Assembly (NCBI GenBank): GCA_030158725.1
Contig: JAOASJ010000008.1
Coordinates: forward strand, 15,860 to 79,859
Direction of reading: 5' to 3'
DNA: 64,000 bases
DNA from: Bacteroidia bacterium
GTDB lineage: Bacteria > Bacteroidota > Bacteroidia > NS11-12g > UBA955
The position numbers and the translations under genes were made by a program. Within the stretch, counting starts at the first letter, position 1; the number at the start of each line of letters is the position of its first letter. Positions 1,983-48,371 of this stretch are shown here, piece after piece. The notes beneath the pieces are model-generated. The model worked only from the letters and a program-made list of their open reading frames with translations, searched no databases and was not told the origin of the DNA.

Positions 1983-2132
1983 GCCGCGAAAATAAGAATG
2001 TAAAATAATTTCGTAAAACACAAAACGCGTGATTTACACATATTTTATCCTCAGTGCGGATAATTTATTTTTTGCACCTGTATCATAATGATTCATTTAA
2101 TGCGTTTAAAGCTCTATTATTGTAATGAAATT

Positions 2133-4871
2133 ATGAAAAGATTCTATCTATTCTGCTTATTTGTAATTCTGTGTGCTGTTAATTCTCAAGCGCAATCATG
2201 GCTAAGATCGTTTAAAGGCCGTGTGGTTGATTCGAGTACTTTAAAACCTTTACCCGACGCAACCATTAGCGTTTTTAGTGCAAAAGACACCATGCTTTTG
2301 AACTTTGGTTTTACCACACCGAATGGAAATTTTACCATATCGACAAAGTCTAACGACTCTGTTCTGATTATAATTAGTATAATAGGTTATAATGAACGCA
2401 CCTTCAAAGAGCCAGCATTGGGAGACCAATGGATGTTTCAAGAATATGGAGACATTAAACTAAGTACCTTGCCTGTTTCCCTCAAAGGTTTCACCGTGCG
2501 CACTTCAGCAATTCGCATGAAAGGCGATACCATAGAAATCAATGCCAGCCGTTTTAAAGTTTTGCCAGGCAGCGATGTCGCACAATTGTTTAAAAAGATT
2601 CCTGGTTTTGAAGTCAGTGTAAAAGGCGAAGTGAAAGTAAATGGCACTGCTGTAAATAAAATCATGGTGGATGGCTCGGACTTTTTCGGGAACAATCCGG
2701 GTATGGTTTCAAAAAACCTAAGTGCCGACATGATAGAGACAGTGCAAGTTTTTGAAGAGAAAAACGAAGATGGTTCACCTAAAGAGGAAGCCTCTAAAAT
2801 TATCAACCTCAAACTCAAAAAAGGCAAGCGCAATGGGACGTTTGGCGATTTCCTTGGAGGTTATGGAACAACAAACCGCTATGAAAGTGGCATTCGTTTA
2901 AATAATTTCAAAAACGACCGCAAGGTTTCATTTATCATTAACAGCAATAACATCAATGAAACAGGATTTGATTTTGGTTTTGAAAATTGGCATCAGACTT
3001 TAAACGCTGAACGCAATGGAGGAGGTAATGATGATGACTTTTACTGGTACTCGGGCAACACCAATGAAGGTAATATCAACAATAAGACCAGCATGGGATT
3101 GACCTATTTCAATGAATTTAAAAGACGTAGAAAACTATCTGTCAATTGGTTTGTCAACCGCAACGACTACAGCAGCATATCTGCATCAAATGGCATAAGT
3201 GCGCTGAATGACAGCACCCAAAGGTTTAATAAAGACTCAAGCAATACAAAAGGTTTGGTTTTGGGTAGTAAATTGGAAATTAATTTTTCAAAAGAAATTG
3301 ACAGTACAGGAGAATATGATTTTGGCGTTTCTGGCTATTTATCCCAAAACAAAAATACCATCAATGGTATAAACGAAATAAAGCTTAACAATACATTATT
3401 AAACAAAGGTGTTACTACAGTTCAGAACCAAAACAATTCAGCCAATTTCGAGGTCAATGCAAGCTACAGGCGCTATTTGCGAAAAGACAAACGCTATACT
3501 TTTTTTGTTGCTGGGAATTACAAATTAGCAGACAATAAAAACCAGTATTTTCAATTTTTACAAAACGAAAGCGATACCTTTAACAACCACAACCAAAGAA
3601 ATGTACTAAGTCAAGAGTGGTTAACAAAATTGTACATGGCTATGCCTTTGGCTAAAACAATCAATTTGAATGTTTCAGCCGATCGTTGGCAAATAAGCAA
3701 TAACAGTGAGCAAAGAACCATTGCTGCGCTCAATCAACAATCCAACAATTTCGAACAGATATACAGCAAAAAGATTGACACTTTAAGTGTACTTTTCAAA
3801 AACACCCAAGTCCAAAGCAGTGTAAAAACATTTTTATCCATGCGCAAAAAATATTTTTACAACCAAGCAGGTGTGACCTTTTTGAATTTCAACCTGCAAA
3901 ACACCAATGATGCAGGACAAATTTTACTAAACAAAACCTATCCTAAGTTTTTACCTTTTTATAGCTTGAGTTATTACCCAGGCAAATCGTATATTTCCTT
4001 TAATGCCTCGAAAACCAGCGTCTTTCCAAGTATTACCGATTTGCTTCCTGTATTAAACATTTCAAACAACTACAACCGAAGCATAGGAAATCCTAATTTA
4101 AGTCCAACCGACAATTATTCAGCAAGAACCTATGCCAGTTTTTATAAGTTGAAAGGATTTAAATATTTTTATTTGGGTGGCTCTGGGACTATTTCCAATA
4201 CAGCAAAAATTTGGGTCAGCAGACAAACGGAAGATGGAATTATCGTACGTTCACCTGAAAATGCGCGAGATTACAGAATGGTAAATGCGTGGTTGAATGC
4301 CTCACGAAAGTTGAGCAAAGTTATGAATCTCCAATTTGGTATATCTAATAACTACAGCCACAATCCAATGGTCATTAACGACCAAAAAGCATTTGGAAAC
4401 AACAGCTCGTTCTCTATTAGCCCTGGAATTAATTTTAGCAAAGCAGATAGCTTAGACTTAACCTTTGGCATGGAATGGAATTACAACACCTATACCAATA
4501 CCTTAAATGAGCGTTCAAATTACAAACAGAATATATTTTCGTATAACTTCGATATGCGAACCATTTTGAAATTTGGAACAGAAATCAATACCAGTTTAAA
4601 TATCAGCGACCAAAGAAATGTCCCAGGTATAGGAAAAGTGGTTCCTGTTTGGAATGCCTATATACAACAGCCATTGGGAAAGAAAAACAAATACTATTTA
4701 AAGTTAACAGCATATGATATTTTAAAACAGAACACGAATATTAGCCGTACAGCAATGGACAACTTTGTTTATATATCTCAAAGCAATAGATTGCAGCAAT
4801 ATTTCATGTTAACTTTGGTATACAAAATCAAAAAGATGGGTGGTGAAGAAGCCATGGATTATGTGTATTAA
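2133..4871 (+). CDS. Outer-membrane beta-barrel protein with N-terminal carboxypeptidase-regulatory-like domain and plug (TonB-receptor-like)
   Basis: Signal peptide, GRVVDSST..PLPDATI, KGDTIE..A..F, LFKKIPGFEV, terminal YFMLTLVYKI strand; start moved to MKRFYLF. Confidence 0.75.
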   Translation: MKRFYLFCLFVILCAVNSQAQSWLRSFKGRVVDSSTLKPLPDATISVFSAKDTMLLNFGFTTPNGNFTISTKSNDSVLIIISIIGYNERTFKEPALGDQWMFQEYGDIKLSTLPVSLKGFTVRTSAIRMKGDTIEINASRFKVLPGSDVAQLFKKIPGFEVSVKGEVKVNGTAVNKIMVDGSDFFGNNPGMVSKNLSADMIETVQVFEEKNEDGSPKEEASKIINLKLKKGKRNGTFGDFLGGYGTTNRYESGIRLNNFKNDRKVSFIINSNNINETGFDFGFENWHQTLNAERNGGGNDDDFYWYSGNTNEGNINNKTSMGLTYFNEFKRRRKLSVNWFVNRNDYSSISASNGISALNDSTQRFNKDSSNTKGLVLGSKLEINFSKEIDSTGEYDFGVSGYLSQNKNTINGINEIKLNNTLLNKGVTTVQNQNNSANFEVNASYRRYLRKDKRYTFFVAGNYKLADNKNQYFQFLQNESDTFNNHNQRNVLSQEWLTKLYMAMPLAKTINLNVSADRWQISNNSEQRTIAALNQQSNNFEQIYSKKIDTLSVLFKNTQVQSSVKTFLSMRKKYFYNQAGVTFLNFNLQNTNDAGQILLNKTYPKFLPFYSLSYYPGKSYISFNASKTSVFPSITDLLPVLNISNNYNRSIGNPNLSPTDNYSARTYASFYKLKGFKYFYLGGSGTISNTAKIWVSRQTEDGIIVRSPENARDYRMVNAWLNASRKLSKVMNLQFGISNNYSHNPMVINDQKAFGNNSSFSISPGINFSKADSLDLTFGMEWNYNTYTNTLNERSNYKQNIFSYNFDMRTILKFGTEINTSLNISDQRNVPGIGKVVPVWNAYIQQPLGKKNKYYLKLTAYDILKQNTNISRTAMDNFVYISQSNRLQQYFMLTLVYKIKKMGGEEAMDYVY

Positions 4872-4999
4872 GGATAGGTGTTTTTAAATTAACACCCAGA
4901 AAACGACGCCCTAGCTATACTTATTGAGTATTATTAATTTTCAATACATTTTAAACTGGTACAATTTCTTTACATAAGACTTTAAATTATGATAAATAA

Positions 5000-5044
5000 T
5001 TAAAGCCGAATTAATATAGGCTTAATATCGGTGGAGCAGTTTTG
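5000..5044 (+). promoter_or_regulatory. 11-bp-phased direct repeats (PHO-box/OmpR-type) plus degenerate -7 element
   Basis: TTAAAGC(5000), TTAATAT(5011), TTAATAT(5022), then CAGTTTTG(5037-5044). Confidence 0.6.
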
Positions 5045-5069
5045 CATCATCAAATTAATCAAAAAGAAT

Positions 5070-6509
5070 ATGAATTTAAATCTTTTAAAAATGAGTGCTT
5101 TAGCAATGCTTGCTATCACTGCATTTAGCTCTTGCAAAGACGAAGTAATTGATCCGGTAATTGAACCATCAAACAATGTTGAATTATCAGGAACTTTATC
5201 TACACAAACTTTAGACGCATCAAAAAAATACCTAATTAAAGGTATAGTTACCGTTCCAGATGGTGTAATTTTAACTATCCCTGCTGGTACAGTTTTGACA
5301 GGTCAAAAAGCATCAAAAGGTACACTATTGGTTAAGCCAGGAGGAAAATTAGTAGCTGAAGGTACTGCTGCAAAACCAATCGTTTTTACAAGTAACCAAG
5401 CTGTAGGCGAAAGAGAACAAGGTGACTGGGGTGGTGTTGTATTGTTAGGTAAAGCAAACGTTAACCAAAACAATCCAGCTATCGAAGGTATATCTCCAGC
5501 TGCTACATACGGAACTTTCAACAGCACTGCATATAACACTGACAACTCAGGTATCTTGAAATATGTACGTATTGAATACGCAGGTATCGCTTTAACGCCA
5601 AACAACGAAACCAATGCATTAACAATGGGTGCAATCGGTAGCGGAACAACAATCGACTACGTGCAAGTTACCTATGGTGGTGACGACGGATTCGAATGGT
5701 TCGGTGGTGTTGTTAATTGCTCACACTTAGTATCTCTTGCATCTTGGGATGATGATTTCGATGCAGATTTCGGTTTCAGTGGTAATGTACAATTCGCTGT
5801 ATCAGTTCGTGACCCTTTCAATGCTGACCAATCTGGTTCTAACGGTTTTGAAGTTGACAACGATGCTTCTGGTTCAACTGCAACACCAAAAACTGCTGCT
5901 GTTTTCTCTAACATCACAGTATTAGGTCCAGTTTTTGACTCAACAAAATCTTTGAGCGCCAACTACCAACATGCAATGCACTTGAGAAGAAACTGTGAGG
6001 TTTCAATTTTCAACTCTGTATTTGCTGGTTTCCCAGTTGGATTAAACATCGACGGTTCTGCTGCAGTAACTAACTTCACAACCGGTTTAGGTGTATTGGA
6101 TAAAAACATTTTAGTATCAACAGGTGCTAACAAAAAGAACCCTAACCCATTCGTGAGTGGTTCAACTGCTAGTGCTCCTGTAGCTACTTACTGGAATACA
6201 ACCAAATCAAATGCTGTATTCACTCAAACAGCTCCAATGGCTGGTACTATCCCTGCTTCTAAAGCATTAGGTGATGCTGGTATCCCTGCTGATTTGTTCA
6301 TGAACTATAACACAGTTGCTGGTGTAGCTGGAACTTACCCTAAAGATCCAAACTTCGCTACCTTCACTGGTTTAACTCAATCAGGTGCTGCTTTCTCTGA
6401 TGCTAAATTGGCTTCAGGTTTCACAGCAACTACACACAAAGGTGCTTTCGGTAGCACAGATTGGACTGACATGTGGAGTAACTTTAACCCACAAAACACA
6501 GCTTACTAA
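5070..6509 (+). CDS. Surface lipoprotein, beta-helix-type family commonly associated with TonB-dependent receptors
   Basis: Lipobox AFSSC followed by KDE; GDWGGVVLLG, GILKYVRIEYAG, DDGFEWFGG, DDDFDADFG motifs. Confidence 0.75.
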   Translation: MNLNLLKMSALAMLAITAFSSCKDEVIDPVIEPSNNVELSGTLSTQTLDASKKYLIKGIVTVPDGVILTIPAGTVLTGQKASKGTLLVKPGGKLVAEGTAAKPIVFTSNQAVGEREQGDWGGVVLLGKANVNQNNPAIEGISPAATYGTFNSTAYNTDNSGILKYVRIEYAGIALTPNNETNALTMGAIGSGTTIDYVQVTYGGDDGFEWFGGVVNCSHLVSLASWDDDFDADFGFSGNVQFAVSVRDPFNADQSGSNGFEVDNDASGSTATPKTAAVFSNITVLGPVFDSTKSLSANYQHAMHLRRNCEVSIFNSVFAGFPVGLNIDGSAAVTNFTTGLGVLDKNILVSTGANKKNPNPFVSGSTASAPVATYWNTTKSNAVFTQTAPMAGTIPASKALGDAGIPADLFMNYNTVAGVAGTYPKDPNFATFTGLTQSGAAFSDAKLASGFTATTHKGAFGSTDWTDMWSNFNPQNTAY

Positions 6510-6540
6510 TCATTCATAGTATTATTTTTTTATAACATTG

Positions 6541-6573
6541 AACCCTGCAGATTTCTGCAGGGTTTCTTTTTTT
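6541..6573 (+). terminator. Rho-independent terminator
   Basis: AACCCTGCAG-attt-CTGCAGGGTT followed by T-tract. Confidence 0.85.
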
Positions 6574-6623
6574 ATATGAATTCCAAAAACTTTATTTAAG
6601 TTTGTCTTTTCGTCAATCAAATT

Positions 6624-7895
6624 ATGAGCAATAGAAGAGATTTTATTAAAAACAGTTTACTGTTCGCTGGCGCTATAGGATTAGGAAGTAAAAGTTTAAC
6701 CGCCGCTCCCCCATTGCCCAATGACGCAACGGTTGACGAAAACTATTGGAAATTGGTAAGAGCGCAATTTCCCTTAAGCCATTCAAAAATTTTCCTAAAC
6801 AATGGCACCATGGGTCCTTCACCCTATTCTGTGCTCAACGAAGTACAACAAGAAATGTTGGAAATAGACAGCAGTGGCCGTTACGGTGGCTATGAAGACA
6901 CTGCCATCAAATCGCTGGCCTTATTCTTAAACACCAAAGATTCTGAAATCAGTTTGACCCGCAATGTAACAGAAGGCATTAATGTGGTGTGTTGGGGGCT
7001 AAACTTAAAAGCGGGCGACGAAGTCATTATGACTGGGCACGAGCATGTTGGACATGCCGCACCATGGCTCAACAGAGCTAAGCTACATGGCATATCGATA
7101 AAAATTTTAACCCTAGGAAAAACTGCGTCTGAGACTATTGAGAACTTAAATAAAGTCATAAGCAAGAAAACAAAAGTCATCAGTGTTCCACATATTCCTT
7201 GCACGATTGGTTATGTTTTGCCTGTGAAAGAAATTTGCAAAATAGCCAGAGAAAAAAACATCATTAGTTTTCTAGATGGCGCCCACCCTCCTGGCATGTT
7301 GCAATTGGATTTAAAAGACATCAACTGCGATTTGTATGCTGGCTGTTGTCACAAATGGATGCTTGGGCCTAAAGGCACTGGCTTTTTATATGTATCTGAA
7401 AACATGCGCAATCAGGTTCAGGCGTATTACGGCGGGGGTGGATTTGACACTGGCTGGGATATGTTGAGCAACCCACCAAGTTTGAAAGGCTATGCAGACA
7501 ATGGACACCGCTATTATTACGGCACACAAAACCCTGCCCTATTAAAAGGCATATCAAAAGCCATCGAGTTTCAGAATCAGATTGGACGCGACCGAATAGA
7601 AGCAAGGGTTAAATCGTTGGCCAATTATTTACAAGACCATTTGATTAATTTGAGTACGGATGTAGAAATGTTAACACCAACCGAGAGCATTTCAAAAGCC
7701 GCCCAGGTTTCATTTAAAATCAAAGACAGAGAAATGCAAAAACTGCAAACGCAATGTGGTGAGAAAAAAATCATCACACGTTATGTGGCAGAGAACAACA
7801 TCAATTGCCTGCGCGTATCAACACATATTTACAACAGCTTTGAAGAAATCGATTTGTTTCTGAAAGAAGTTGATACATTTTTATCATTAAAATGA
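6624..7895 (+). CDS. Tat-exported PLP-dependent aminotransferase class V (isopenicillin N epimerase/C-S lyase-like)
   Basis: MSNRRDFIK Tat motif; FLNNGTMG, DGAH, HKWMLGP (PLP lysine), LRVSTHIYN. Confidence 0.8.
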   Translation: MSNRRDFIKNSLLFAGAIGLGSKSLTAAPPLPNDATVDENYWKLVRAQFPLSHSKIFLNNGTMGPSPYSVLNEVQQEMLEIDSSGRYGGYEDTAIKSLALFLNTKDSEISLTRNVTEGINVVCWGLNLKAGDEVIMTGHEHVGHAAPWLNRAKLHGISIKILTLGKTASETIENLNKVISKKTKVISVPHIPCTIGYVLPVKEICKIAREKNIISFLDGAHPPGMLQLDLKDINCDLYAGCCHKWMLGPKGTGFLYVSENMRNQVQAYYGGGGFDTGWDMLSNPPSLKGYADNGHRYYYGTQNPALLKGISKAIEFQNQIGRDRIEARVKSLANYLQDHLINLSTDVEMLTPTESISKAAQVSFKIKDREMQKLQTQCGEKKIITRYVAENNINCLRVSTHIYNSFEEIDLFLKEVDTFLSLK

Positions 7896-8875
7896 GTTTA
7901 GAAGAGGCTAGTGATTTCTTGAGTGCCTGGGACAGAGGAGATACTGAATTTAAGATTCAAAGTTCCGGCAGTACTGGCGAACCGAAAACCATTTTATTGG
8001 AGAGAAAATGGATGGAATGGAGTGCAATGCAAACTGCAAAGTACATGCATCCAAAGGATAACGAAACACTATACTGTTGCTTGCCTCTTAACAAAGTTGG
8101 TGGTTTGATGGTTCTAGTGCGCGCCAAGGTTTGGGGAATTAACCTAATCGTTAAAGCAGCCCAAGGCAATCCCTTAAAAGAATATGTTGATGCAGACATC
8201 ATCTCTGTAACACCATTTCAAATGCAAAACATTTTAGCAGATCTTGACAGCCGAGAGAATTTAAAGCGTTTCAGAGAAGTGTTAATAGGAGGCGCTGAAA
8301 TTTCAGAAGGATTAGAAAAAGAACTAGAAGCGCTTAATCCCAAGTGTCAAATTAGGCAGAGTTACGGCATGAGTGAAACCTATTCACATGTTGCAATTCG
8401 GAATATCAATGGAGAGCATAAAAGCAAATGGTTTACCCCACTTGAAGGCGTTCAAATAAAACTTGACCCGGATGGCTCTGCCATAATATTTACGCCTTAT
8501 TATATGGATGGTTTGGCAACAAATGATTTAATAGAACTTGATGGATTGGGTAAATTTCAGGTATTGGGAAGAAAAGATTTTGTGGTGAATTCTGGTGGGG
8601 TTAAACTACAAATTGAGCAAATAGAAAAAGCCATACACGAGAAATATCCAAAGAACTTGAAATTTGCAATTAGTTCAATCAGGGATGAAAGATTAGGTGA
8701 AAAGCTGGTATTGGTATGCGAAAAAAAAGCTCAAATCGAAAATTACGATCTGAGCTTTTTAAAAGAGATTAACTTATTTGCTGTGCCTAAAGAAATTATC
8801 GAGATAAATTCTATTCCTTACAATGAAGGAGGAAAAATAGACAGAATGCTTATTAAGCGTTTAATTAATAATTAA
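7892..8875 (+). CDS. menE: O-succinylbenzoate-CoA ligase-like AMP-binding enzyme (short Bacteroidota form)
   Basis: SSGSTGEPK, YGMSET, GRKDFVVNSGGVK, GKIDR motifs; ATGA overlap with upstream gene. Confidence 0.7.
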   Translation: MSLEEASDFLSAWDRGDTEFKIQSSGSTGEPKTILLERKWMEWSAMQTAKYMHPKDNETLYCCLPLNKVGGLMVLVRAKVWGINLIVKAAQGNPLKEYVDADIISVTPFQMQNILADLDSRENLKRFREVLIGGAEISEGLEKELEALNPKCQIRQSYGMSETYSHVAIRNINGEHKSKWFTPLEGVQIKLDPDGSAIIFTPYYMDGLATNDLIELDGLGKFQVLGRKDFVVNSGGVKLQIEQIEKAIHEKYPKNLKFAISSIRDERLGEKLVLVCEKKAQIENYDLSFLKEINLFAVPKEIIEINSIPYNEGGKIDRMLIKRLINN

Positions 8876-9335
8876 CAGACTCAATTAATTTACCATTCTC
8901 ATCAAATGATTTCCAGTTACCAACACGCACTCCGTTGTGGTAATGCATTTCAGAGCGCAATACGCCTTGAGCATCCCAAACTTTCCAAGTACCATGTTTC
9001 AAATCATTTTTGTAAAATGCAACTGATTCTAGAATACCTTTATCGTTGTATGAGCGCCACTCACCAACTTTAAGACCATCGTTAAAAGCACCAACTTCTT
9101 TGGTTGTACCGTTGATGTTGTAAACGATCATTTGACCATCTTTAATTCCATCAGAAACTTCATAAAAAGATTCTCTTTGACCTGTAGCGTAGAAAAATTC
9201 AAGGCTTCCAGTCAAGACCTCTCCTGCTGAATTAACATATTTACCTTGCGTATTTAATTGAACATCTGAATTTTGAGCAGTCAAACTAGCTACAAAAAAC
9301 AAAGAAAGGGCGGCGGTTATTAATGTTTTTTTCAT
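8865..9335 (-). CDS. Exported MORN-variant repeat protein (YwqK-like)
   Basis: Signal peptide; repeated GxWxxYxxxG units (GEWRSYNDKG, GTWKVWDAQG, GNWKSFDENG). Confidence 0.75.
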   Translation of the reverse strand: MKKTLITAALSLFFVASLTAQNSDVQLNTQGKYVNSAGEVLTGSLEFFYATGQRESFYEVSDGIKDGQMIVYNINGTTKEVGAFNDGLKVGEWRSYNDKGILESVAFYKNDLKHGTWKVWDAQGVLRSEMHYHNGVRVGNWKSFDENGKLIESVNY

Positions 9336-9373
9336 GGCGACTTAACAATTTAATAACAAAGATACTAAAAAAA

Positions 9374-9667
9374 TTATCGAGTTTCCAAGATAATTTTAGA
9401 ATTTATTTCGTAAGTCTTGATTAAAGTAGACTTATAAGAGATGCAATCGATCTTAACAGATTGACATTGTTTGAAGATTGGCATTGGAATATAACATTCT
9501 CCTCTGCTGTTGGTATAATAAACTTTTCCAGTTCCTATTAGCTCAACTTTAGCCCCTGCAACCAATTCATTATTTTTATCTGAAACTTGTATTAGTTGAA
9601 CTGCAGATTGGTCGTATGCAAAAAGATTTGCACTCACCAAAAGAATTAACATTAATACCGCTTTCAT
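9374..9667 (-). CDS. Small exported carboxypeptidase-regulatory-like domain protein
   Basis: Signal peptide MKAVLMLILL; V.D..NE.VAGA.V, YTNSRGE, ISYK pattern. Confidence 0.65.
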   Translation of the reverse strand: MKAVLMLILLVSANLFAYDQSAVQLIQVSDKNNELVAGAKVELIGTGKVYYTNSRGECYIPMPIFKQCQSVKIDCISYKSTLIKTYEINSKIILETR

Positions 9668-9673
9668 TGGATA

Positions 9674-9729
9674 CAAAATACCTCAATGCTTATTAAGATA
9701 AACCGTGTCCAATATTATCTTATTGTTAA
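9674..9729 (-). promoter_or_regulatory. 11-bp-phased direct repeats plus degenerate -7 element
   Basis: Minus strand: TTAACAA(9729), ATAATAT(9718), TTAATAA(9696), GTATTTTG ending at 9674. Confidence 0.5.
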
Positions 9730-9826
9730 TTATTGGCGGCCGGGAAAAACAATGCTAAATTGTGTCATACAGCATTGCTGCTATTGGGCTAAACAAAAAT
9801 AAAGAAACAGTAAAGTGGGGTAAAAA

Positions 9827-9871
9827 TTCATTTTAGATTAAGATAAAATTAATATTGCATGTCGTGTTTTG
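9827..9871 (+). promoter_or_regulatory. 11-bp-phased direct repeats plus degenerate -7 element
   Basis: TTCATTT(9827), TTAAGAT(9838), TTAATAT(9849), GTGTTTTG(9864-9871). Confidence 0.6.
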
Positions 9872-9875
9872 TAGC

Positions 9876-12716
9876 ATGATTAGGACCATAAGAATTCTTA
9901 TAATTACAAGCGTATTATTAATCTCAAAACTATCTGTTTCTCAAACTTCTACCATTAAAGGTCTGCTTCAAGAAAGCATGAAAAAAGAAGCCGTTCAAGG
10001 TGCAAACGTAACCTTGATTGGTCAAAACAAAGTTGAAATATCGGGCACCAAAGGTGAATTTGCTTTCACAGGATTAACTCCCGGTGTATATTCAATCTCA
10101 ATTAAACTATATGGTTACTTAAACCGTCAAGTGGATAGCATTCGTGTTGGCTTAGACGAAACCAAAGATATCGGCATCATTTTCCTACAAGAAAAAATTG
10201 AAACCAAAAGAGGTGGTAAGGTTGTTTACCGTAAACCACAAACCACAGTTGCCGCAGGGGTTAAGGACCAACAAAAATCTGAAACCATCACAAACGTTAT
10301 AACCAGTGCTTCAATTGCAAAGAGCAATGATGGCGATGCCGCTAAAGTGGCAGCCCGTGTTCCTGGTGTAACTTTACTTGAAAATAGATTCATCATGTTG
10401 CGCGGTTTGAGCCAACGTTATAACAGTGTTCAAATAAACAACATCAATGCACCAAGTACTGAGGTAGACAAAAGAGCTTTCTCATTTGATTTGGTTCCAT
10501 CAAATATGTTGGATAAAATGTCGATTTACAAATCGCCATCATCTGACCTAGCAGGTGACTTTGCTGGTGGGGTTATCAAACTTTTAACCAAAAGCGAAAT
10601 TGAAAAAAACTTTATTTCTTATAGTTTAGGAATCGGCTTCAGAGTGAATACTACTTTTAGCAGCCACTTGAACAACAATGTAAGTGCAAGCGATTACTTC
10701 GGATTTGACAATGGAAGCAGAGCATTGCCAAGTGCTTTCCCTAGCAGCTTAGCGGCAATGTCTAGCAGTCAAAACATCGCTTATGGCAAGATGTTCAACA
10801 ACAACTATGCATTAAACAGTTTCCGCAGCCCAATCGACTTTGGTGCAGGGTTTGGATTTGGACAAAACATCAAATTCAAAAAAGAAAAATACAGCAGTAT
10901 GAGTTTGTATACTGTAAACAACTTTTCGTACTCAACCAATTTCCAGTTTTCACAAATGAAGCGCTATAGATACCAATTAGATCCTACTAATTATGTGCAA
11001 CAAATGTTTAACTATACCGACGACAACTTATCGATTGAATCTAAATTTAGCTTGTTAAGCAATTGGATATTTAGAGTAAACAGCAAAAAGACTTTTACTT
11101 TCAAAAACATCTACAATCAAATTGGAGAAAACGAAACCACCATTAGAACTGGTGTTGCGCTAACTGAGAGACCGAATGACGAATGGAAAAACTACAGCTT
11201 TCACTACACAGCAAGAAGCCTATATTTTGGACAATTTGAGGGCAACCACAAAATAGGTAAAGACGACAAATTGGTATACACCCTTGGATACAGCAATGTA
11301 AAAAGAGATGAACCTGACTTCAGACGCTTTAGAACAGTTAGAGCAATTGGGGACAACAATGTATTCACCCTTTCAGATCCTCCAAGTGCTAACTTATATG
11401 ATGCAGCAAGATTCTTCTCTAACTTGAAAGAAAACACCTTTGCTTTAAACATTAACTATGAAACAAAATTTGATTCAAAATACGATTCAGCAAACGGTAT
11501 TGCTTTAAGATTTGGTGCTTATTCAGAAGCAAAATCTAGAACCTTTGCTGCTAGATGGTTTGGTTTCGTGTACTCAGGTGATCCAACATTGAAAAACACC
11601 TTTTTGCAAACACCAATTGATCAAATCTTCAGTTCTGAAAACATCAACAGCACTTCAGGCTTAAAACCACAAGAAGGAACAAATCCAAGTGATAAATATA
11701 CGGCACAAAACAAATTAATCAGTGGCTATGTAAATTCAAGTATCCCATTCAAAAAAATGAATGTAAACGTGGGTGTAAGAACAGAATATTTCCAACAAGG
11801 ATTAAAGAGTGCAATAGGCTTAGATAAGATTAATGTCAATCTTACAAATCTTAATATTTTACCTTCATTCAACGCAGCATACTATTTTGACAAAAAGAAA
11901 AAGAATCAATTGCGTTTGGCTTATGGTAAAACAGTAAACAGACCAGAGTTCAGAGAGCTTGCTCCATTTGTATACTACGATTTCATGTATGATGTAAACG
12001 TTGTAGGTAACCCTGATTTGAAAACTTGTACCATAGACAATTTAGACTTGCGTTTCGAAAACTACCCAAGTTCTTCTGAAACATTCAACTTCGGCGTGTT
12101 TTACAAACGTTTTATCAATCCAATTGAAAACTATGTTCAACCAATCGGATTAAGTCAACAATTTCAATTAAAAAATGCAGCAAGTGCATATAATATGGGT
12201 GCAGAATTAGAATTCAGAAAATCATTTGAAAACAGCACCCAAAAGAAACATTTAAAAAGATTGTCATTCTTAATCAATGCATCTTATATAATAAGTAAAG
12301 TTGACTTAGGTAAAGACAGCACATTAAGTCAAGCGCGCACTAGACCATTACAAGGACAATCTCCATATATTTTCAATGCAGCATTACAATATAAAACAGA
12401 CAGCGGTTTGAGTATTAACATTGCTTACAATATCTATGGAAAACGTATAGTGTATGTAGGTAACAACATCTTCCCTACTGTTTATGAAATGCCTAGACAT
12501 TCATTAGATTTGACCATCACTAAAGAATTAAACAAACGTGTAAGTTTAAAATTTGGAGTTAGTGATATCCTAAACTACAAAAGTAGAATGTGGCAAGACA
12601 CCAATGGTGACAATAAAATCGACTACAAAAAAGAACGTACTGACCAAGAAATACTATCTTACAGAAGAGGACAAATGTTCAGTTTTAGTTTTTCATATAA
12701 GATCAATCAAAAATAA
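9876..12716 (+). CDS. TonB-dependent receptor (no adjacent SusD)
   Basis: N-terminal CarboxypepD-like domain; plug RVPGVT..RGLSQRYN..FDLVPSN..GDFAGG; barrel NRPEFRELAPF, GNPDLK, PLQGQSPY; C-terminal FSFSY. Confidence 0.9.
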   Translation: MIRTIRILIITSVLLISKLSVSQTSTIKGLLQESMKKEAVQGANVTLIGQNKVEISGTKGEFAFTGLTPGVYSISIKLYGYLNRQVDSIRVGLDETKDIGIIFLQEKIETKRGGKVVYRKPQTTVAAGVKDQQKSETITNVITSASIAKSNDGDAAKVAARVPGVTLLENRFIMLRGLSQRYNSVQINNINAPSTEVDKRAFSFDLVPSNMLDKMSIYKSPSSDLAGDFAGGVIKLLTKSEIEKNFISYSLGIGFRVNTTFSSHLNNNVSASDYFGFDNGSRALPSAFPSSLAAMSSSQNIAYGKMFNNNYALNSFRSPIDFGAGFGFGQNIKFKKEKYSSMSLYTVNNFSYSTNFQFSQMKRYRYQLDPTNYVQQMFNYTDDNLSIESKFSLLSNWIFRVNSKKTFTFKNIYNQIGENETTIRTGVALTERPNDEWKNYSFHYTARSLYFGQFEGNHKIGKDDKLVYTLGYSNVKRDEPDFRRFRTVRAIGDNNVFTLSDPPSANLYDAARFFSNLKENTFALNINYETKFDSKYDSANGIALRFGAYSEAKSRTFAARWFGFVYSGDPTLKNTFLQTPIDQIFSSENINSTSGLKPQEGTNPSDKYTAQNKLISGYVNSSIPFKKMNVNVGVRTEYFQQGLKSAIGLDKINVNLTNLNILPSFNAAYYFDKKKKNQLRLAYGKTVNRPEFRELAPFVYYDFMYDVNVVGNPDLKTCTIDNLDLRFENYPSSSETFNFGVFYKRFINPIENYVQPIGLSQQFQLKNAASAYNMGAELEFRKSFENSTQKKHLKRLSFLINASYIISKVDLGKDSTLSQARTRPLQGQSPYIFNAALQYKTDSGLSINIAYNIYGKRIVYVGNNIFPTVYEMPRHSLDLTITKELNKRVSLKFGVSDILNYKSRMWQDTNGDNKIDYKKERTDQEILSYRRGQMFSFSFSYKINQK

Positions 12717-12730
12717 CACTTAGATATTTT

Positions 12731-12763
12731 AAAAAAAGGTGGACCAGGTCCACCTTTTTTTTT
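12731..12763. terminator. Bidirectional Rho-independent terminator
   Basis: AAAAAAAGGTGGAC-cag-GTCCACCTTTTTTTT. Confidence 0.85.
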
Positions 12764-12807
12764 GCATTAATTTTTAAAAAGAATTTAAATCCAATGAAAT
12801 TGCAGCG

Positions 12808-14661: not shown

Positions 14662-14746
14662 AATGTTATTCCACAAAAATAGGTTTTTGAAAATTTAAAT
14701 GCAGCGTTTTATTCGAATTTGTGTCTTATTGATTATATTTGAATGT

Positions 14747-17089
14747 ATGAAAAGATTAAGTACTTGTTTTTTGTTTTTAATTGTCTGCGCAAGTTCAAGC
14801 TTTGCACAAACTAAAAAGTTGCAATATTATCTCTCTGATAGTTTGCAAATCGTAAACAGCGCCAATCAAGCACTTCAATATGCCCTTTCAGGAGGCTACC
14901 ACTGCCCTCAATTCAGTCCTTGCGACGTTAATGGCGATGGCAAGAAAGACATTGTTATATACGACAAATTGGATGGCAGCATTTCTACCTATGTCAATGT
15001 AGGTGGCACAGGTGAAGCAAAATATACTTTAGACAACCGCTACGCTGCTTATTTCCCTAAAATCAAAGCCTTAGGATGGATGCTTTTGCGCGACTACAAC
15101 AATGATGGATATGAAGATATTTTCACCAGTGGTCCTCAAGGTTATATGGTTTATAAAAACATTTCGTTTACTGTGAGTGGCCGTCCTGAATTTATTGAAA
15201 TACCGCCACTAAAATACCGCAACATGAGTCCTTCAGGATCTTTCATTGAATACAATGCTTTGTCTACGCCTTCAATTCACTTACCAGGCATTTATGACAT
15301 TGACTTTGATGGCGACTTAGACATCATGAGTTATTCCAATATTGGTGGTGCGATTTATTTGTATATGAATTATCAAGTGGAGGACAATTTACCTCCCGAT
15401 TCTATGCGTTTTTACCACACTGACTTATGTTGGGGCTATTTCAACGACAACAATTGCAACAATTACATTTTAAATACTTGCTCTAAAAACAGCGACTATA
15501 GATTATATGGCAAACGCCACACCAATGGTTCTTCAATTACCTTATTTGACGCCAATGATGACAATGACATCGATTTATTAATTGGCAATGAAGGTTGCAC
15601 ACACATGACCATGTTGTACAATGCCAAACCAGCCAACCTTAACCAATACGATTCGTTTTTCATGTATGACACCAATTATGTCGCTGCAAATAACCGTGCA
15701 GATGTATCAATATATCCAGCCGCTTATTTCATGGATGTAAACAACGATGGTAAACGCGATTTAATTTACGCACCCAACTCTGTTAGCACCCAGTATATCA
15801 TTGAGGAAACCAAACAAATCCGTTGGTATAAAAACACCAATACAGACAAATCACCAACTTGGGCACAACAAGAACCTTTGTTTACCGATGATATTTTGGA
15901 CAATGGAAACAAAAGCAATTGGGCATGTGCAGATTGGGATAAAGATGGAGATTTGGATTGTATATCAGCCACCAATGCTGATGCATACCGCAGCAAGGAC
16001 ACAGCGGACAGAATTTATTTATACGAAAACGTTGGCACAGCAAAACAAGCCAAATTCAAATTGACCAACATCAATTTTGGGAACATCTTTAAAGACAAAA
16101 TCAACAAAATTGCCCCAGCCATTGCTGATATGGACAATGATGGAAAATTGGATTTGGTTTTAGGCAATGACAAGGGTGAAATTTTATTTTACAAAAACAC
16201 GTCTTCAAGCGCCAATACACTTAACCCTACTTTTACCTTTTCGAATTCAAGCTACCCTGGATTCACCATAGATGTTGGAGGATTCAGTGCTCCAGCAGTG
16301 GCTGACATCGACCGCGATGGTTTAAAAGATTTGGTTATCGGGCGTAGCGACAGTATGCTTTCATATTACAGAAATTCTGGTACCCTTACCCAACCTAGTT
16401 TTTCAGTTGTTACCAATAAATTCGGAAACATGAAACCTATTGATTCTATAGGTTTTCAATACATCTATGACGACACATTTGCCATCATTGGTTATTATCC
16501 TGTTTATGAGAAAAACGTTTATTCAAAACCCGTTATAATGGATTTGGATGGCAATGACACTTTGGATATTATTGTCGGTAATTCACTTGGAACATTAAGA
16601 ATGTATGCCATTGACGGCAGCAAACCCACATCAACCTTCAAACAAACAGATTCTTTTTATTACCAAAAAGCATTTCAAGGCACCAAGTTCTTCAAAACAG
16701 ATTTGGGCAATTTTATTTCTCCTTGCCTAGGTGATTTTAATGGCGACAGTGTCCCTGAATTAATTGTATCAACCAATAGAGGTGGGATTTTCTATTTGAA
16801 AAACAATTTTGCTTACAGACATAAAACTTCACTTAATAGGTACAATGTTAAAAACATAAATGCATATCCTAATCCTGCGTCTTCTCAAATTGAATTTGAC
16901 TTGGCTATAGAAGATATTTATGTGGTGAAATTATACAACAGCTTGGGACAAGAAATCAATTGTGAGCTGAATGCAAACGGTAAGATATCTGTTCTAAATG
17001 TGAACAGCTTGGATTCTGGATTTTATATTATCAGTTTTCAATTAAACGACCAAAGCAGTTACACGTCTAAATTCCAAGTTATCCATTAA
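14747..17089 (+). CDS. FG-GAP/VCBS-repeat protein with T9SS type A C-terminal sorting domain
   Basis: Repeated DxNxDGxxD motifs; C-terminal YPNPA...YNSLGQ...LDSGFYII...KFQV. Confidence 0.85.
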   Translation: MKRLSTCFLFLIVCASSSFAQTKKLQYYLSDSLQIVNSANQALQYALSGGYHCPQFSPCDVNGDGKKDIVIYDKLDGSISTYVNVGGTGEAKYTLDNRYAAYFPKIKALGWMLLRDYNNDGYEDIFTSGPQGYMVYKNISFTVSGRPEFIEIPPLKYRNMSPSGSFIEYNALSTPSIHLPGIYDIDFDGDLDIMSYSNIGGAIYLYMNYQVEDNLPPDSMRFYHTDLCWGYFNDNNCNNYILNTCSKNSDYRLYGKRHTNGSSITLFDANDDNDIDLLIGNEGCTHMTMLYNAKPANLNQYDSFFMYDTNYVAANNRADVSIYPAAYFMDVNNDGKRDLIYAPNSVSTQYIIEETKQIRWYKNTNTDKSPTWAQQEPLFTDDILDNGNKSNWACADWDKDGDLDCISATNADAYRSKDTADRIYLYENVGTAKQAKFKLTNINFGNIFKDKINKIAPAIADMDNDGKLDLVLGNDKGEILFYKNTSSSANTLNPTFTFSNSSYPGFTIDVGGFSAPAVADIDRDGLKDLVIGRSDSMLSYYRNSGTLTQPSFSVVTNKFGNMKPIDSIGFQYIYDDTFAIIGYYPVYEKNVYSKPVIMDLDGNDTLDIIVGNSLGTLRMYAIDGSKPTSTFKQTDSFYYQKAFQGTKFFKTDLGNFISPCLGDFNGDSVPELIVSTNRGGIFYLKNNFAYRHKTSLNRYNVKNINAYPNPASSQIEFDLAIEDIYVVKLYNSLGQEINCELNANGKISVLNVNSLDSGFYIISFQLNDQSSYTSKFQVIH

Positions 17090-43183: not shown

Positions 43184-44206
43184 ATGCGCTTCAAACTCCT
43201 TGTTTTAGTAATATCCTTCTGCATTTTAGGCCCCGTTTCTGCCTCAGGCAAACTTGATTCATGTATGTCCAAAGGCATTGCATTATCGCAACAAAAGAAC
43301 TATAAAAATGCCATCTTGGAGTTTGACAATTGTATTTCACAAAAATCAAATTACGCTGAAGCCTATTTCCAAAGGGGAACTTGCTACTTATTACTCAATA
43401 AACACAATATTGCTTTGGTCGACTTTAACCAAGCATTGAGACTCGACTCTAGTTTATACGAAGCATACTACAACCGCGCCTTGGCTGAACATGCCATTAA
43501 AAACTACACCTTTTCTGAAGCTGACTTTCTTTTATACAAAAGCCGTGTGCCCAGCGACCATAGGGTCTTGAGCAGTTTAGCCCTACTTATGGAAGACATG
43601 CAAGAATATCCTTCGGCTCTTAAGTATTACACTGAATACCTGAAATTTCATCCCAACGATTTCGAAACCTTAAAATCGCGTGCCATGGTGTATGCGGAAA
43701 TGAATTCGATTGAATTGGCCATTGCAGACCTAGATATTTGCCTTCGTCCCGATGCCAACGACACTGCAATTTGGATGAGTAAAGGCAATATATATTACGA
43801 TGCTCAAAGGTTTTCAGAAGCCATTGACGCCTACAATGTGATTTTACTTTTATACCCAGACAACAAAGCAGCCTTGTATAACCGAGCTGATGCTTATACG
43901 TCTTTAAAACGCTATGATGAGGCTATTAGAGATTACCAATACCTAAGTTCTAAAGACAAATACAATTCAGAATACTACTTTAATATAGGATTTTGCTATT
44001 TGCAGCAAGCTAAAAACCAAGAAGCGATTTTAAGTTTTGGAAAAGCTTTAGATACAGATTACACCAATCTTGGACTATTACTTATGCTTAGAGGTGTGGC
44101 GTATAACAATTTGAAACTGCAAGCAGAAGCTTGTTCAGATTGGCAAAAAGCGGTAGAGCTTGGCTACAAAGAAGCCCAAAAATACCGCAGCGATTTTTGT
44201 AAGTAA
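43184..44206 (+). CDS. Exported tetratricopeptide repeat protein
   Basis: Signal peptide; multiple AYxNRG/A TPR units; ACSDWQKAVELG end. Confidence 0.85.
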   Translation: MRFKLLVLVISFCILGPVSASGKLDSCMSKGIALSQQKNYKNAILEFDNCISQKSNYAEAYFQRGTCYLLLNKHNIALVDFNQALRLDSSLYEAYYNRALAEHAIKNYTFSEADFLLYKSRVPSDHRVLSSLALLMEDMQEYPSALKYYTEYLKFHPNDFETLKSRAMVYAEMNSIELAIADLDICLRPDANDTAIWMSKGNIYYDAQRFSEAIDAYNVILLLYPDNKAALYNRADAYTSLKRYDEAIRDYQYLSSKDKYNSEYYFNIGFCYLQQAKNQEAILSFGKALDTDYTNLGLLLMLRGVAYNNLKLQAEACSDWQKAVELGYKEAQKYRSDFCK

Positions 44207-45033: not shown

Positions 45034-45963
45034 ATGAAATACTATTTAGCACAATTCAGAGATCAAGTCTTCAATGGCTCTCTGTCTCTTTACAAACGCG
45101 TTTTTATTCAGTTTTTAATCCTAAATATCGTCATTGGACTTATTTCATTGGTGGTATACACCCCTTTGGTACTAAAACTTTTCAATTGGAATTTTTCTGA
45201 CCTGGTAGAATTTCAAACCAAAATGGAAGAAATGGGCGAATTGATGAAAAATGGCGGCGACCCCTCTTCTGCATTCGAAGGAATTTTCGGAACACCAAAC
45301 TATATTTACATATTACCGCTATTGCTTTTTGGAATGTTTATCGGTATTTGGTCTATGAATTTATACTACCAACTTAACGATGCAGAAGTCAGGAACAGCG
45401 ACAGAAGTATATTAACAGCGCTTAAGAATTCATTTTCACCACAGCTGTTTACTATTCTAGGATTTATGATTTTATACTATCTATTAAGTATAGCTTCATT
45501 TATAATATTCATGACTGTTGTGGTAATGATTATGCAAATAACCAAAGTACTTGGAATAATCATTGGATTCATAGGCTTCTTCTTCTTATTGTTTTTCTTA
45601 CTCCGTTTTTCACTTGGATTTGCAGCCATCGTACACGGAAAAATGAGCATTGGTGAAGCTTTCGGCTTTAGCTTTACCCATTTAACATTTAAAAGAGCGG
45701 CCATGCTTTTATTAATGGGCATAGTAACTTTAGTCGTTATGGGCATAGCCTCTGGTTTAGGCGGCATGCTGGTACATTTAATAGTCAACCGCGAGCACAG
45801 CGACCCTATGACCTATTATGTGGTAAGCCAAATATTTGGAACAATAATGGGCGTAATTGTTAGTACCTTTATCTTTACTGGAAGCAGTGCTTTATATTTC
45901 CGCTACAGCAATGATGAAGACCAATATGAAACTGAATTAAGCGAGCACTTAATCAACAACTAA
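45034..45963 (+). CDS. Integral membrane hypothetical protein
   Basis: About six hydrophobic segments, acidic C-terminus. Confidence 0.7.
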   Translation: MKYYLAQFRDQVFNGSLSLYKRVFIQFLILNIVIGLISLVVYTPLVLKLFNWNFSDLVEFQTKMEEMGELMKNGGDPSSAFEGIFGTPNYIYILPLLLFGMFIGIWSMNLYYQLNDAEVRNSDRSILTALKNSFSPQLFTILGFMILYYLLSIASFIIFMTVVVMIMQITKVLGIIIGFIGFFFLLFFLLRFSLGFAAIVHGKMSIGEAFGFSFTHLTFKRAAMLLLMGIVTLVVMGIASGLGGMLVHLIVNREHSDPMTYYVVSQIFGTIMGVIVSTFIFTGSSALYFRYSNDEDQYETELSEHLINN

Positions 45964-47582: not shown

Positions 47583-48371
47583 ATGGAACTACAACATATC
47601 AGTGCTTCGCTTAATTCAATTGTTACGGAAACGGCTCATTTCATTGCAGAGCAAAGAAAAAACTTTACCCTCGATGCAGTGAGTGACAAAGGCTTGAATC
47701 AATTGGTTAGCTATGTTGATGTAGAGGCTGAAAAATTATTGGTCAACGCCCTGAGCCGTTTGGTTCCTGAAGCTGGATTTATAACTGAAGAAAACACCAG
47801 TGATGTAGGACGTAAAACCTTAAATTGGATTATCGACCCTTTGGATGGAACCACCAACTTTATACATGGATTGCCTGTGTATTCGGTAAGTGTGGCCTTG
47901 GCTGAGGGGCAGGAAATACTGGTTGGAGCGGTATATGAAATTGGCCGTAAAGAATTGTTTAGTGCCTGGAAAAACGGAGGTGCTTGGTGCAATGGGCAAG
48001 CCATTCATGTATCTAAAGAAACAGAATTAAAAAACAGCCTAATGGCAACTGGCTTCCCATATTATGACTTTGAACAAATGGATGCATACATCCACACATT
48101 AAAAGACTTGATGCAAAGCACACATGGCTTAAGAAGAATGGGCTCAGCGGCAGTCGATTTGGCTTATGTAGCTTGTGGTCGATTTGAAGGGTTTTTCGAA
48201 TACGGTTTACATGCTTGGGATGTTGCAGCTGGTTGCTTATTGGTGAAAGAAGCAGGTGGCAGTTTATGCGACTTTGATGGCAAAGACGATTTCCTTTTCG
48301 GCAGTTCAATAGTTGCCGACAACACAGGCATTCACTCAGCCTTGATGCAAATTATAGAAAATAGATTTTAA
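47583..48371 (+). CDS. suhB: Inositol monophosphatase family protein
   Basis: WIIDPLDGTTNF, RRMGSAA, WDVAAG. Confidence 0.9.
   Translation: MELQHISASLNSIVTETAHFIAEQRKNFTLDAVSDKGLNQLVSYVDVEAEKLLVNALSRLVPEAGFITEENTSDVGRKTLNWIIDPLDGTTNFIHGLPVYSVSVALAEGQEILVGAVYEIGRKELFSAWKNGGAWCNGQAIHVSKETELKNSLMATGFPYYDFEQMDAYIHTLKDLMQSTHGLRRMGSAAVDLAYVACGRFEGFFEYGLHAWDVAAGCLLVKEAGGSLCDFDGKDDFLFGSSIVADNTGIHSALMQIIENRF

Follow-up and report, generated by a model that had tools for sequence, protein, structure and literature searches.

Three promoters in a stretch of DNA from a Bacteroidia bacterium (GenBank assembly GCA_030158725.1, contig JAOASJ010000008.1, positions 15,860 to 79,859 of the forward strand; the whole stretch of 64,000 nucleotides (nt) is called the window here) share an architecture in which kTAAnA hexamers recur in 11-bp phase and a 13-nt spacer separates the proximal hexamer from the TTTG of the -7 box. 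The three promoters precede the genes for a beta-helix lipoprotein, a TonB-dependent receptor, and a small secreted protein. They are probably Pho-box promoters of a Bacteroidota type, predicted to switch on a receptor-lipoprotein regulon under phosphate (Pi) limitation. The evidence consists of the sequence architecture, its conservation, its genome-wide specificity, and the gene neighbourhood.

In soil, freshwater and sea, much of the recycling of organic matter and phosphorus falls to Bacteroidota, whose phosphate-starvation proteins, including a receptor/lipoprotein pair, are already known from omics. The gene module described here is probably a member of such a known Pi-starvation system; what appear to be new are the operator, the way it is spaced from the Bacteroidota -7 element, its phylum-wide conservation, and the small and MORN proteins attached to the module. 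An operator of fixed geometry would allow Pho regulons to be predicted in uncultured lineages and would link beta-helix lipoproteins, small CarboxypepD_reg-like proteins and MORN proteins to phosphorus acquisition. It would also offer a natural phosphate-responsive promoter for Bacteroidota genetics.

Phased repeats upstream of the -7 element

The lipoprotein promoter (5000..5044, plus strand) contains three phased hexamers, TTAAAG (5000-5005), TTAATA (5011-5016) and TTAATA (5022-5027), the last two of which belong to TTAATAT heptamers starting at 5011 and 5022. After a spacer of 13 nt comes the TTTG of the -7 box CAGTTTTG (5037-5044), and the ATG lies 25 nt farther on, at 5070. At the receptor promoter (9827..9871, plus strand) the hexamers are TTCATT (9827-9832), TTAAGA (9838-9843; heptamer TTAAGAT at 9838) and TTAATA (9849-9854; heptamer TTAATAT at 9849), followed by the same 13-nt spacer, the TTTG of GTGTTTTG (9864-9871), and the ATG 4 nt on, at 9876. 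Thus, each of the two plus-strand promoters has a third, weaker, in-phase repeat at its 5' end (TTAAAG at 5000 and TTCATT at 9827). The small-gene promoter (9674..9729) is read on the minus strand. Counted in slots upstream of the proximal hexamer, it has TTAACA in slot -33 (9729..9724), ATAATA in slot -22 (9718..9713) and TTAATA in slot 0 (9696..9691; heptamer TTAATAA, 9696..9690), again 13 nt before the TTTG of its -7 box GTATTTTG (9681..9674), with the ATG 6 nt on, at 9667. Direct repeats of 11-bp period, with at least two units, are therefore present at all three promoters (5000/5011/5022, 9827/9838/9849 and 9729/9718/9696). A first-pass annotation of the window had placed the start of the proximal heptamer exactly 22 nt before the final G of each -7 box (5022/5044, 9849/9871 and 9696/9674), and these positions and this spacing are exact. 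It had also described phased heptamers at all three promoters, which is correct for the lipoprotein and the receptor. At the small gene only one heptamer fits; the -11 slot is empty (CACGGTT), and the partners 22 and 33 bp upstream deviate from the heptamer.

The housekeeping promoter of Bacteroidota is said, in a consensus attributed to Bayley et al. in 2000, to consist of a TTTG at -33 and a TAnnTTTG at -7. The three promoters match neither part fully: CAGTTTTG, GTGTTTTG and GTATTTTG lack the TA at positions 1 and 2, and on reading the sequence no TTTG is found at the -33 place of these promoters. The repeats stand directly 5' of the -10 equivalent, where they take over the position of the upstream promoter element; when the register is shifted, the score collapses. 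By comparison, a canonical TAnnTTTG is present within 100 nt upstream of 22 of the 40 window genes that have an upstream gap of at least 50 nt, so the degeneracy of the three boxes relative to other genes, noted earlier, is real. The mRNA of the receptor is probably leaderless, since its ATG begins only 4 nt after the TTTG. At three of the five promoters of the predicted regulon the ATG lies 4-7 nt past the -7 box. This short distance is not special to the regulon, because ten window genes have a canonical TAnnTTTG that ends 4-9 nt before the ATG [for example, 45960-47486(-), 47583-48371(+), 54769-55959(-) and 43184-44206(+)]; judged from such distances, leaderless or near-leaderless mRNAs seem to be common in this organism.

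In the genome as a whole (2.67 Mb in 131 contigs, 35.8% GC, designated G000), the heptamer TTAA(T/G)A(T/A) occurs 4094 times on both strands, and 48 copies have a TTTG at +19 to +22. Pairs of heptamers 11 bp apart number only 5, which is no enrichment compared with other distances (0-9). The composite motif, defined as two heptamers 11 bp apart plus a TTTG at +22, occurs twice, exactly at the lipoprotein and receptor promoters, where an arithmetic estimate gives about 0.06 expected occurrences. A looser pattern, TTAA-N7-TTAA-N15-TTTG, is at background (10 versus 5-11 for four other spacings). Thus, the concern that the motif might simply occur at background frequency in AT-rich promoters is answered for the composite motif, which is also conserved, and is justified for the looser patterns. 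Since the motif was defined after the fact and loose patterns are at background, word counts alone are insufficient, and the decisive evidence is conservation.

A 51-nt position weight matrix (PWM), built from 40 aligned sites of the genus (lipoprotein plus receptor), gives 51.7 bits for the lipoprotein promoter and 49.8 bits for the receptor promoter, both of which are training sites; the next matches in the genome score 19.6 and 16.9 bits, and the maxima in three simulated genomes are 11.1-14.2 bits. This matrix misses the small-gene promoter because of the empty -11 slot, and it was replaced by a phased model, in which an octamer at fixed distance to the TTTG is combined with any positive phased slots. 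The phased model ranks the small gene first in the genome (20.3), although that promoter was outside the training set, followed by a phosphate transporter gene, pit (20.2), the lipoprotein (20.1) and the receptor (18.7). The scores then fall to 14.7 and 14.6, and then to 11.6 or less; matches at 14.6-14.8 are located on contigs C34 and C121. At 12 shifted registers, no match exceeds 17.

Within the genus, orthologues of the lipoprotein (63-91% identity) are present in 23 of the 24 genomes searched, and orthologues of the receptor in all 24. The sequences before 20 orthologous lipoprotein genes and 20 orthologous receptor genes can be aligned with no gap in the hexamers or the TTTG, even though the intervening spacers change freely, and the receptor ATG lies 3-5 nt after the TTTG in all 20 cases. 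The conserved form of the small-gene promoter is kTAACA-N5-ATAATA-N16-TTAAnn-N13-TTTG-N4..6-ATG. To quantify the footprint, sequences with TAA cores in at least two of four phased slots were counted, and the same sequences read in eight shifted registers served as the control. In the true register the lipoprotein promoter gives 20/20 (0 in the shifted registers), the receptor promoter 20/20 (0-7) and the small-gene promoter 13/18 (0-2). At least two phased slots are likewise occupied in 19 of 25 genus sequences upstream of pit, and in 18 of 21 upstream of a phoB-like gene, with 4 of 8 in the neighbouring family; over all these sets, the counts in shifted registers are 0-7. A strict pattern finds 11 matches in five larger genomes of the genus versus 4 for the reversed pattern; because 10 of the 11 are receptor, lipoprotein or pit promoters, the regulon of the genus seems small. 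A strict-pattern match on contig C18 of a relative (G003), with no gene downstream, was set aside as chance.

Beyond the genus, loci were scanned with a uniform background and a phased score of at least 12, with ten shifted registers and shuffles as controls. Of 52 loci outside the genus, 28 have the phased motif before the receptor, versus 0-1 of 52 per shifted register and none in the shuffles, and before the lipoprotein in 17 of 72 loci, versus 0-1 when shifted; many lipoprotein genes are too close behind the receptor to need a promoter of their own. The motif-bearing loci include ones labelled Cyclobacteriaceae, Saprospiraceae, Hymenobacter, Runella and Lacihabitans, and a Melioribacter-labelled locus has four perfect repeats. 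The motif is also present 37 nt before a PhoX gene in Adhaeribacter and 26 nt before one in Chryseobacterium. In five named Bacteroidota genomes the strict pattern again yields 11 matches versus 4 for the reversed pattern, and downstream lie genes for Porin_O_P (a phosphate-selective porin), a calcineurin-like phosphoesterase, PhoU_div, four proteins like TonB-dependent transporters (TBDTs), one efflux protein and two small open reading frames, with no gene in two cases. The conservation of both the 11-bp phase and the fixed 13 nt to the TTTG, in genus and phylum, agrees with the earlier view of these repeats as direct repeats of the OmpR/PhoB type.

Candidate regulon members and the gene neighbourhood

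The 16.9-bit PWM match stands directly before pit, a gene for a PitA/PHO4-type phosphate transporter on contig C101, in the form cTTAACAttgtgGTAACA-N13-TTTG-N7-ATG; the transporter scores 369 bits against the PitA family NF033774, under the cut-off of 800. The genome encodes three OmpR-type regulators. One of these, on contig C126 (13680-14363, minus strand), matches TIGR02154 PhoB with 235.7 bits (cut-off 296.2) and the Bacteroides PhoB family NF053854 with 215.4 bits (cut-off 270), the two best of 98; since both scores are under the cut-offs, the protein is called PhoB-like here. A kinase gene whose best matches are PnpS and PhoR lies directly downstream. Alignment of orthologues places the true start of the regulator at the tenth codon of its open frame (MSSHTSYKILIV...), and upstream of it is the sequence TTAATC-N5-TTAACT-N5-TTCAGT-N13-TTTG. 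The 19.6-bit match (C55:7-57) is ambiguous: it lies 300 nt before a gene for a PF12850 metallophosphoesterase and overlaps a hairpin and a T-run. Orthologues of this gene are preceded by phased motifs scoring 10-20, at a distance of 4, about 85 or about 300 nt, and the PlcP-like metallophosphoesterase is possibly a member of the regulon. The same stretch of at least 52 nt is present at C55:1-57 and at about 7000-7060 of contig C103 (its inferred end), so these two contigs probably abut.

In other members of the genus, the genes are ordered MORN(-) small(-) | receptor(+) lipoprotein(+). Here and in the nearest kin, two unrelated genes, which encode a class-V aminotransferase and an AMP-dependent ligase, separate the lipoprotein gene and its own promoter from the rest of the module, and in some genomes the lipoprotein gene is on a different contig from the receptor gene. 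In a survey of 78 Bacteroidota loci, the receptor is present in 67, and receptor and lipoprotein genes are separated by 18-449 nt in 60 of the 65 loci in which the gap was measured. This synteny supports the earlier proposal that the lipoprotein is the predicted partner of the receptor. Eight of the 78 loci contain a PhoB-like regulator of at least 45% identity and 11 contain a kinase, while 4 have pit within 6 kb. The order kinase(-) regulator(-) | receptor(+) lipoprotein(+) is seen in three Flavobacterium and two Chryseobacterium loci, and in another genome (G031) a regulator 62% identical to that on C126 directly precedes the receptor. In Flavobacterium loci beside phoBR-like genes (L121, L123 and L125), the lipoprotein is 46-48% identical to that of the window and the receptor 39%.

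A corresponding pair has been studied by omics in Flavobacterium johnsoniae, where Fjoh_0545 (a TBDT) and Fjoh_0546 (lipoprotein FII, with a pectin-lyase fold) sit in the phoBR cluster (Lidbury et al. 2020, PMC8115612). Upon Pi depletion, the log2 changes reported there are 8.0 for Fjoh_0545, 9.9 for Fjoh_0546, 3.06 for PhoB and 8.59 for PlcP (pf12850), and the homologues are repressed under nitrogen and iron limitation. PitA is named in the legend to the PUS clusters in the same paper, which also reports that the Flavobacterium lipoproteins FI-FIII are 31-36% identical to ElpS of Caulobacter (PMC8115612).

The receptor of the window (946 aa, 9876..12716, plus strand) matches PF14905 OMP_b-brl_3 (100.8 bits), PF07715 Plug (43.7) and PF13620 CarboxypepD_reg (35.9). 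Its sole NCBIfam match is TIGR01782, under that family's cut-off, with no SusC-type match, and no SusD Pfam family is found in any neighbour of the receptor. The system thus has neither half of a SusC/SusD pair, as the first-pass annotation had suggested in calling it non-Sus. The lipoprotein (479 aa, 5070..6509, plus strand) has a signal peptide and a lipobox-like cysteine (...FSSC) and has no family match in the local copies of Pfam or NCBIfam. All of its Atlas look-alikes carry PF28492 Beta_helix_4 (score 0.99), and an AF2 model (pLDDT 68.7) contains short repeated strands. In a Foldseek search of this model against the PDB, the best rows are all beta-helix enzymes, none of them significant (best E 2e-3, TM no higher than 0.35). 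From its sequence and gene position, the lipoprotein is a predicted, FII/ElpS-like partner of the receptor. The pair has the composition of a Pi-starvation TBDT module, a receptor with Plug, CarbopepD_reg_2 and OMP_b-brl_3 domains adjoining a beta-helix lipoprotein, the beta-helix having weak support from the model and Foldseek.

The small secreted protein (97 aa, 9374..9667, minus strand) resembles the N-terminal CarboxypepD_reg-like domain of the receptor: it matches PF13715 with 18.3 bits, under the cut-off of 32.2, and aligns with receptor residues 38-61 in BLASTP (E 6e-4). Downstream of its gene is that of a protein with MORN_2 repeats (156 aa, 8865..9335, minus strand; PF07661, 58.8 bits), which is a possible accessory. 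Both genes are conserved divergent neighbours of the receptor gene in the seven genus loci examined past it. In the survey of 78 loci, MORN is found in six; five of these, labelled Paludibacter, Porphyromonadaceae or Parabacteroides, have it 3' of the lipoprotein, and the sixth is a genus locus. This distribution favours the earlier suggestion that the small protein and possibly the MORN protein are accessories of the module. However, the MORN gene has a canonical -7 box of its own (TATCTTTG, 21 nt before its ATG) in the 38-nt gap after the small gene (9336-9373, minus strand), so it may be expressed independently of the shared operator. RNA-library contigs from three studies extend over 5074-6486 in the lipoprotein gene and 9891-12345 in the receptor gene; DNA carry-over is possible, gaps in the coverage carry no weight, and the contigs are uninformative about transcript starts, levels or co-induction. 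One run covers the small gene and one the MORN gene, and a fourth covers only the intervening genes and MORN.

Several other features of the region and of its relatives were recorded. Directly upstream of the lipoprotein gene (2088-4871, plus strand) is a gene for a 927-aa outer-membrane protein with OMP_b-brl_3 and a sub-threshold CarboxypepD_reg, with no Plug match and no phased motif; it is no close paralogue of the receptor, which as a query at E<=1e-50 finds only itself in the genome. A protein with FG-GAP repeats and a type IX secretion system (T9SS) sorting domain (14699-17089, plus strand), encoded beside a Mur-ligase gene, is unrelated to the operator module. Unusual states of the module are seen in three relatives (G007:C42:19167-23929, G012:C10:46564-48987 and G001). 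The first carries the lipoprotein gene in triplicate, as a tandem array; the second retains an intact lipoprotein, beside a receptor match of just 46% identity that is interrupted by 33 stop codons; and in the third, 99% complete, the receptor is present and the lipoprotein was not found with this query. In the neighbouring family, the beta-helix partner at two loci (L053, G031:C2, 6716-8491; L054, 10538-12319) has a T9SS C-terminal sorting domain and is not a plain lipoprotein. DNA near-identical to 4900-12800 (word share 0.74-0.94) is present in freshwater, wastewater, aquatic and groundwater metagenome runs from eight studies, and its closest named relatives are metagenome-assembled genomes (MAGs) of uncultured "Bacteroidia bacterium".

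Proposed activation and alternative explanations

A predicted Pho box in these genomes would consist of two to four hexamers (kTAAyA/TTAAnA), directly repeated every 11 bp. As the proximal hexamer always ends 13 nt short of the TTTG, the row extends over the position that a -33 element has in an ordinary promoter. With no TA in the -7 box and no TTTG at -33, the core promoters would be weak on their own. Under phosphate limitation, the phosphorylated PhoB-like regulator of C126 would oligomerise head-to-tail on the phased hexamers and, once bound, would recruit the housekeeping polymerase to the weak -7 box in a class-II-type activation. As far as can be told from architecture, such activation by a PhoB-like regulator is consistent with the fixed 13 nt, with repeats that differ in number and with slots that may be skipped. 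We infer that the PhoB-like regulator is the protein that binds, that it activates and does not repress, that this organism responds to phosphate through it, that lipoprotein and receptor touch each other, and that the substrate contains phosphorus. The proposed regulon would comprise the receptor, the lipoprotein, the divergent small protein (perhaps with MORN), the PitA-type inner-membrane transporter of C101, the phoBR-like operon through autoregulation, and possibly the PlcP-like metallophosphoesterase of C55. Having its own copy of the operator, the lipoprotein gene could move 4.8 kb away without losing control; with separate operators, partner genes could come to lie in distant places of a genome and still be co-regulated.

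The phosphate reading, which the first-pass annotation had already put forward, is supported by comparison: a motif of this kind stands before pit and the PhoB/PhoR-like operon in this genome and before genes for PhoX, Porin_O_P, PhoU_div and a metallophosphoesterase elsewhere, and the F. johnsoniae pair is Pi-induced (PMC8115612). Several observations weigh against it. The regulator and the kinase of C126 are under the curated PhoB/PhoR cut-offs. The phoB-like promoter was missed by the scans because its proximal hexamer (TTCAGT) is weak, and the site was found by eye. The models were trained on the very sites that they rank highest, so that independent evidence comes only from the small-gene promoter and from loci outside the genus, and kin are non-independent samples, for which the shifted registers serve as control. 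A genome scan with a matrix of this type had been proposed as a check for phosphatases and Pi transporters; it did match the Pi transporter, but no phosphatase gene is among the matches in this genome. The PstS-like gene of this genome has no motif in the 200 nt upstream, as read by eye, and the third of three PhoX genes also lacks it. Among phylum pstC loci, the motif is within 1.5 kb of only 2 of 30, and of 0 of 3 from the same class; this survey is a poor test, because most loci are from other classes and 1.5 kb upstream of each was covered. Finally, the text of PMC8115612 contains no phoB mutant or promoter analysis (the words "mutant" and "promoter" occur 0 times in it).

One alternative is that the operator is real and shared but belongs to another regulator that binds direct repeats, either one of the other two OmpR-type proteins or an unrelated factor, with substrate, iron or envelope stress as the signal. 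There are three OmpR-family regulators in the genome, the PhoB assignment is under curated cut-offs, most of the pst loci tested lack the motif, and TonB receptors are often under substrate or metal control. Even so, this explanation is unlikely, given the genes that the motif precedes: a Pi transporter, a PhoB/PhoR-like operon, PhoX, a phosphate porin and PhoU_div. Furthermore, the PhoB-like pair is the one that adjoins the receptor in other taxa, whereas one of the other OmpR-type regulators follows a kinase in what reads, without a family search, as a Kdp-like arrangement; and the F. johnsoniae homologues respond to Pi depletion and are reported to be repressed under nitrogen and iron limitation (PMC8115612).

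That the repeats are instead a repressor operator, or part of a promoter for an alternative sigma factor, is quite improbable. The proximal hexamers do lie between -33 and -7, where a repressor would also block polymerase, and the -7 boxes do deviate from TAnnTTTG. However, the repeats vary from two to four and skip single slots while keeping the 11-bp phase, a behaviour that fits oligomerising winged-helix regulators rather than a -35 element for a sigma factor. The TTTG, which does not vary, belongs to the housekeeping promoter of Bacteroidota, and an absent -33 element together with a weak -7 box fits dependence on an activator. A sigma-54 promoter was also considered and rejected, since the GG/GC elements that visual inspection picked out in a handful of orthologues are conserved neither in spacing nor in sequence. 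Least credible is a chance resemblance among AT-rich promoters. TTAA-rich words are indeed frequent in a genome of 36% GC, heptamers paired at 11 bp show no enrichment (5 versus 0-9 at other distances) and the loose pattern is at background, but the hexamers and their register are gap-free in 20/20 and 20/20 orthologues whose spacers diverge, and chance is refuted by shifted-register and shuffle controls that are near zero in genus and phylum.

We lean, with considerable reserve, towards the broader view that kTAAyA repeats 13 nt from a TTTG constitute a general Pho box of Bacteroidota, extending as far as the Melioribacter-labelled locus, and that PhoB there replaces, throughout the phylum, recognition of the -33 element by the unusual housekeeping sigma factor. 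If this is true, the Pho regulon of any Bacteroidota genome or MAG could be listed straight from its sequence, and the core phosphorus route in streamlined freshwater lineages would be a TonB receptor, a beta-helix lipoprotein and Pit, rather than Pst and phosphatases.

Comparison with known phosphate-starvation systems

The closest counterpart of the module is PUSIV of F. johnsoniae (phoR-phoB-Fjoh_0545-Fjoh_0546), which has the same three Pfam domains in the receptor, a beta-helix lipoprotein as partner, and the order receptor then lipoprotein that is found here in other loci (PMC8115612). In the window, by contrast, 3.4 kb of unrelated genes come between the two, which lie far from phoBR and each have an operator. 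The window module also has the attached small CarboxypepD_reg-like and MORN proteins; the likeness to PUSIV is drawn through domains and through other Flavobacterium loci. ElpS of Caulobacter crescentus is a surface lipoprotein made under phosphate starvation (PMC2996285), as is proposed for the lipoprotein of the window, the likeness running through Flavobacterium FI-FIII. A difference is that a type II secretion system assists the release of ElpS, which is tied to alkaline phosphatase activity; the abstract of PMC2996285 describes no receptor partner. The SusC/SusD and PusC/PusD pairs also combine a TonB-dependent barrel, with an N-terminal CarboxypepD_reg-like domain, and the gene of a surface lipoprotein beside it. 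However, the partner in the window is a predicted beta-helix protein rather than a member of a SusD family, and the receptor has no SusC-type NCBIfam match.

For the operator, the relevant comparison is with the Pho boxes of PhoB, PhoP and SphR. The half-site of Bacillus subtilis PhoP is TT(A/T/C)ACA. A PHO box consists of two 11-nt direct repeats (PMC4415409), and in E. coli, B. subtilis, Streptomyces and cyanobacteria alike such boxes are 11-bp direct repeats of at least two units that replace the upstream promoter element and stand before phosphate genes and the operon of their own regulator (PMC4415409), as the window repeats and their relatives do. In cyanobacteria, the SphR box has repeats of CTTAACCT joined by a 3-bp linker (PMC1906773), and the window core nTTAAyn comes close to it. 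In Bacteroidota, PhoB of B. fragilis binds a 512-bp fragment of the pstC promoter, and the word "consensus" is absent from the text of that study (PMC3547664); a search of full-text literature, with subscription journals and regulon databases outside it, found no consensus for a Bacteroidota Pho box. The window repeats, known here from sequence, differ from the Pho boxes of PhoB, PhoP and SphR in that slots can be skipped (0, 11, 33) and in that the repeats are coupled, at a fixed 13 nt, to the TTTG of the Bacteroidota -7 element.

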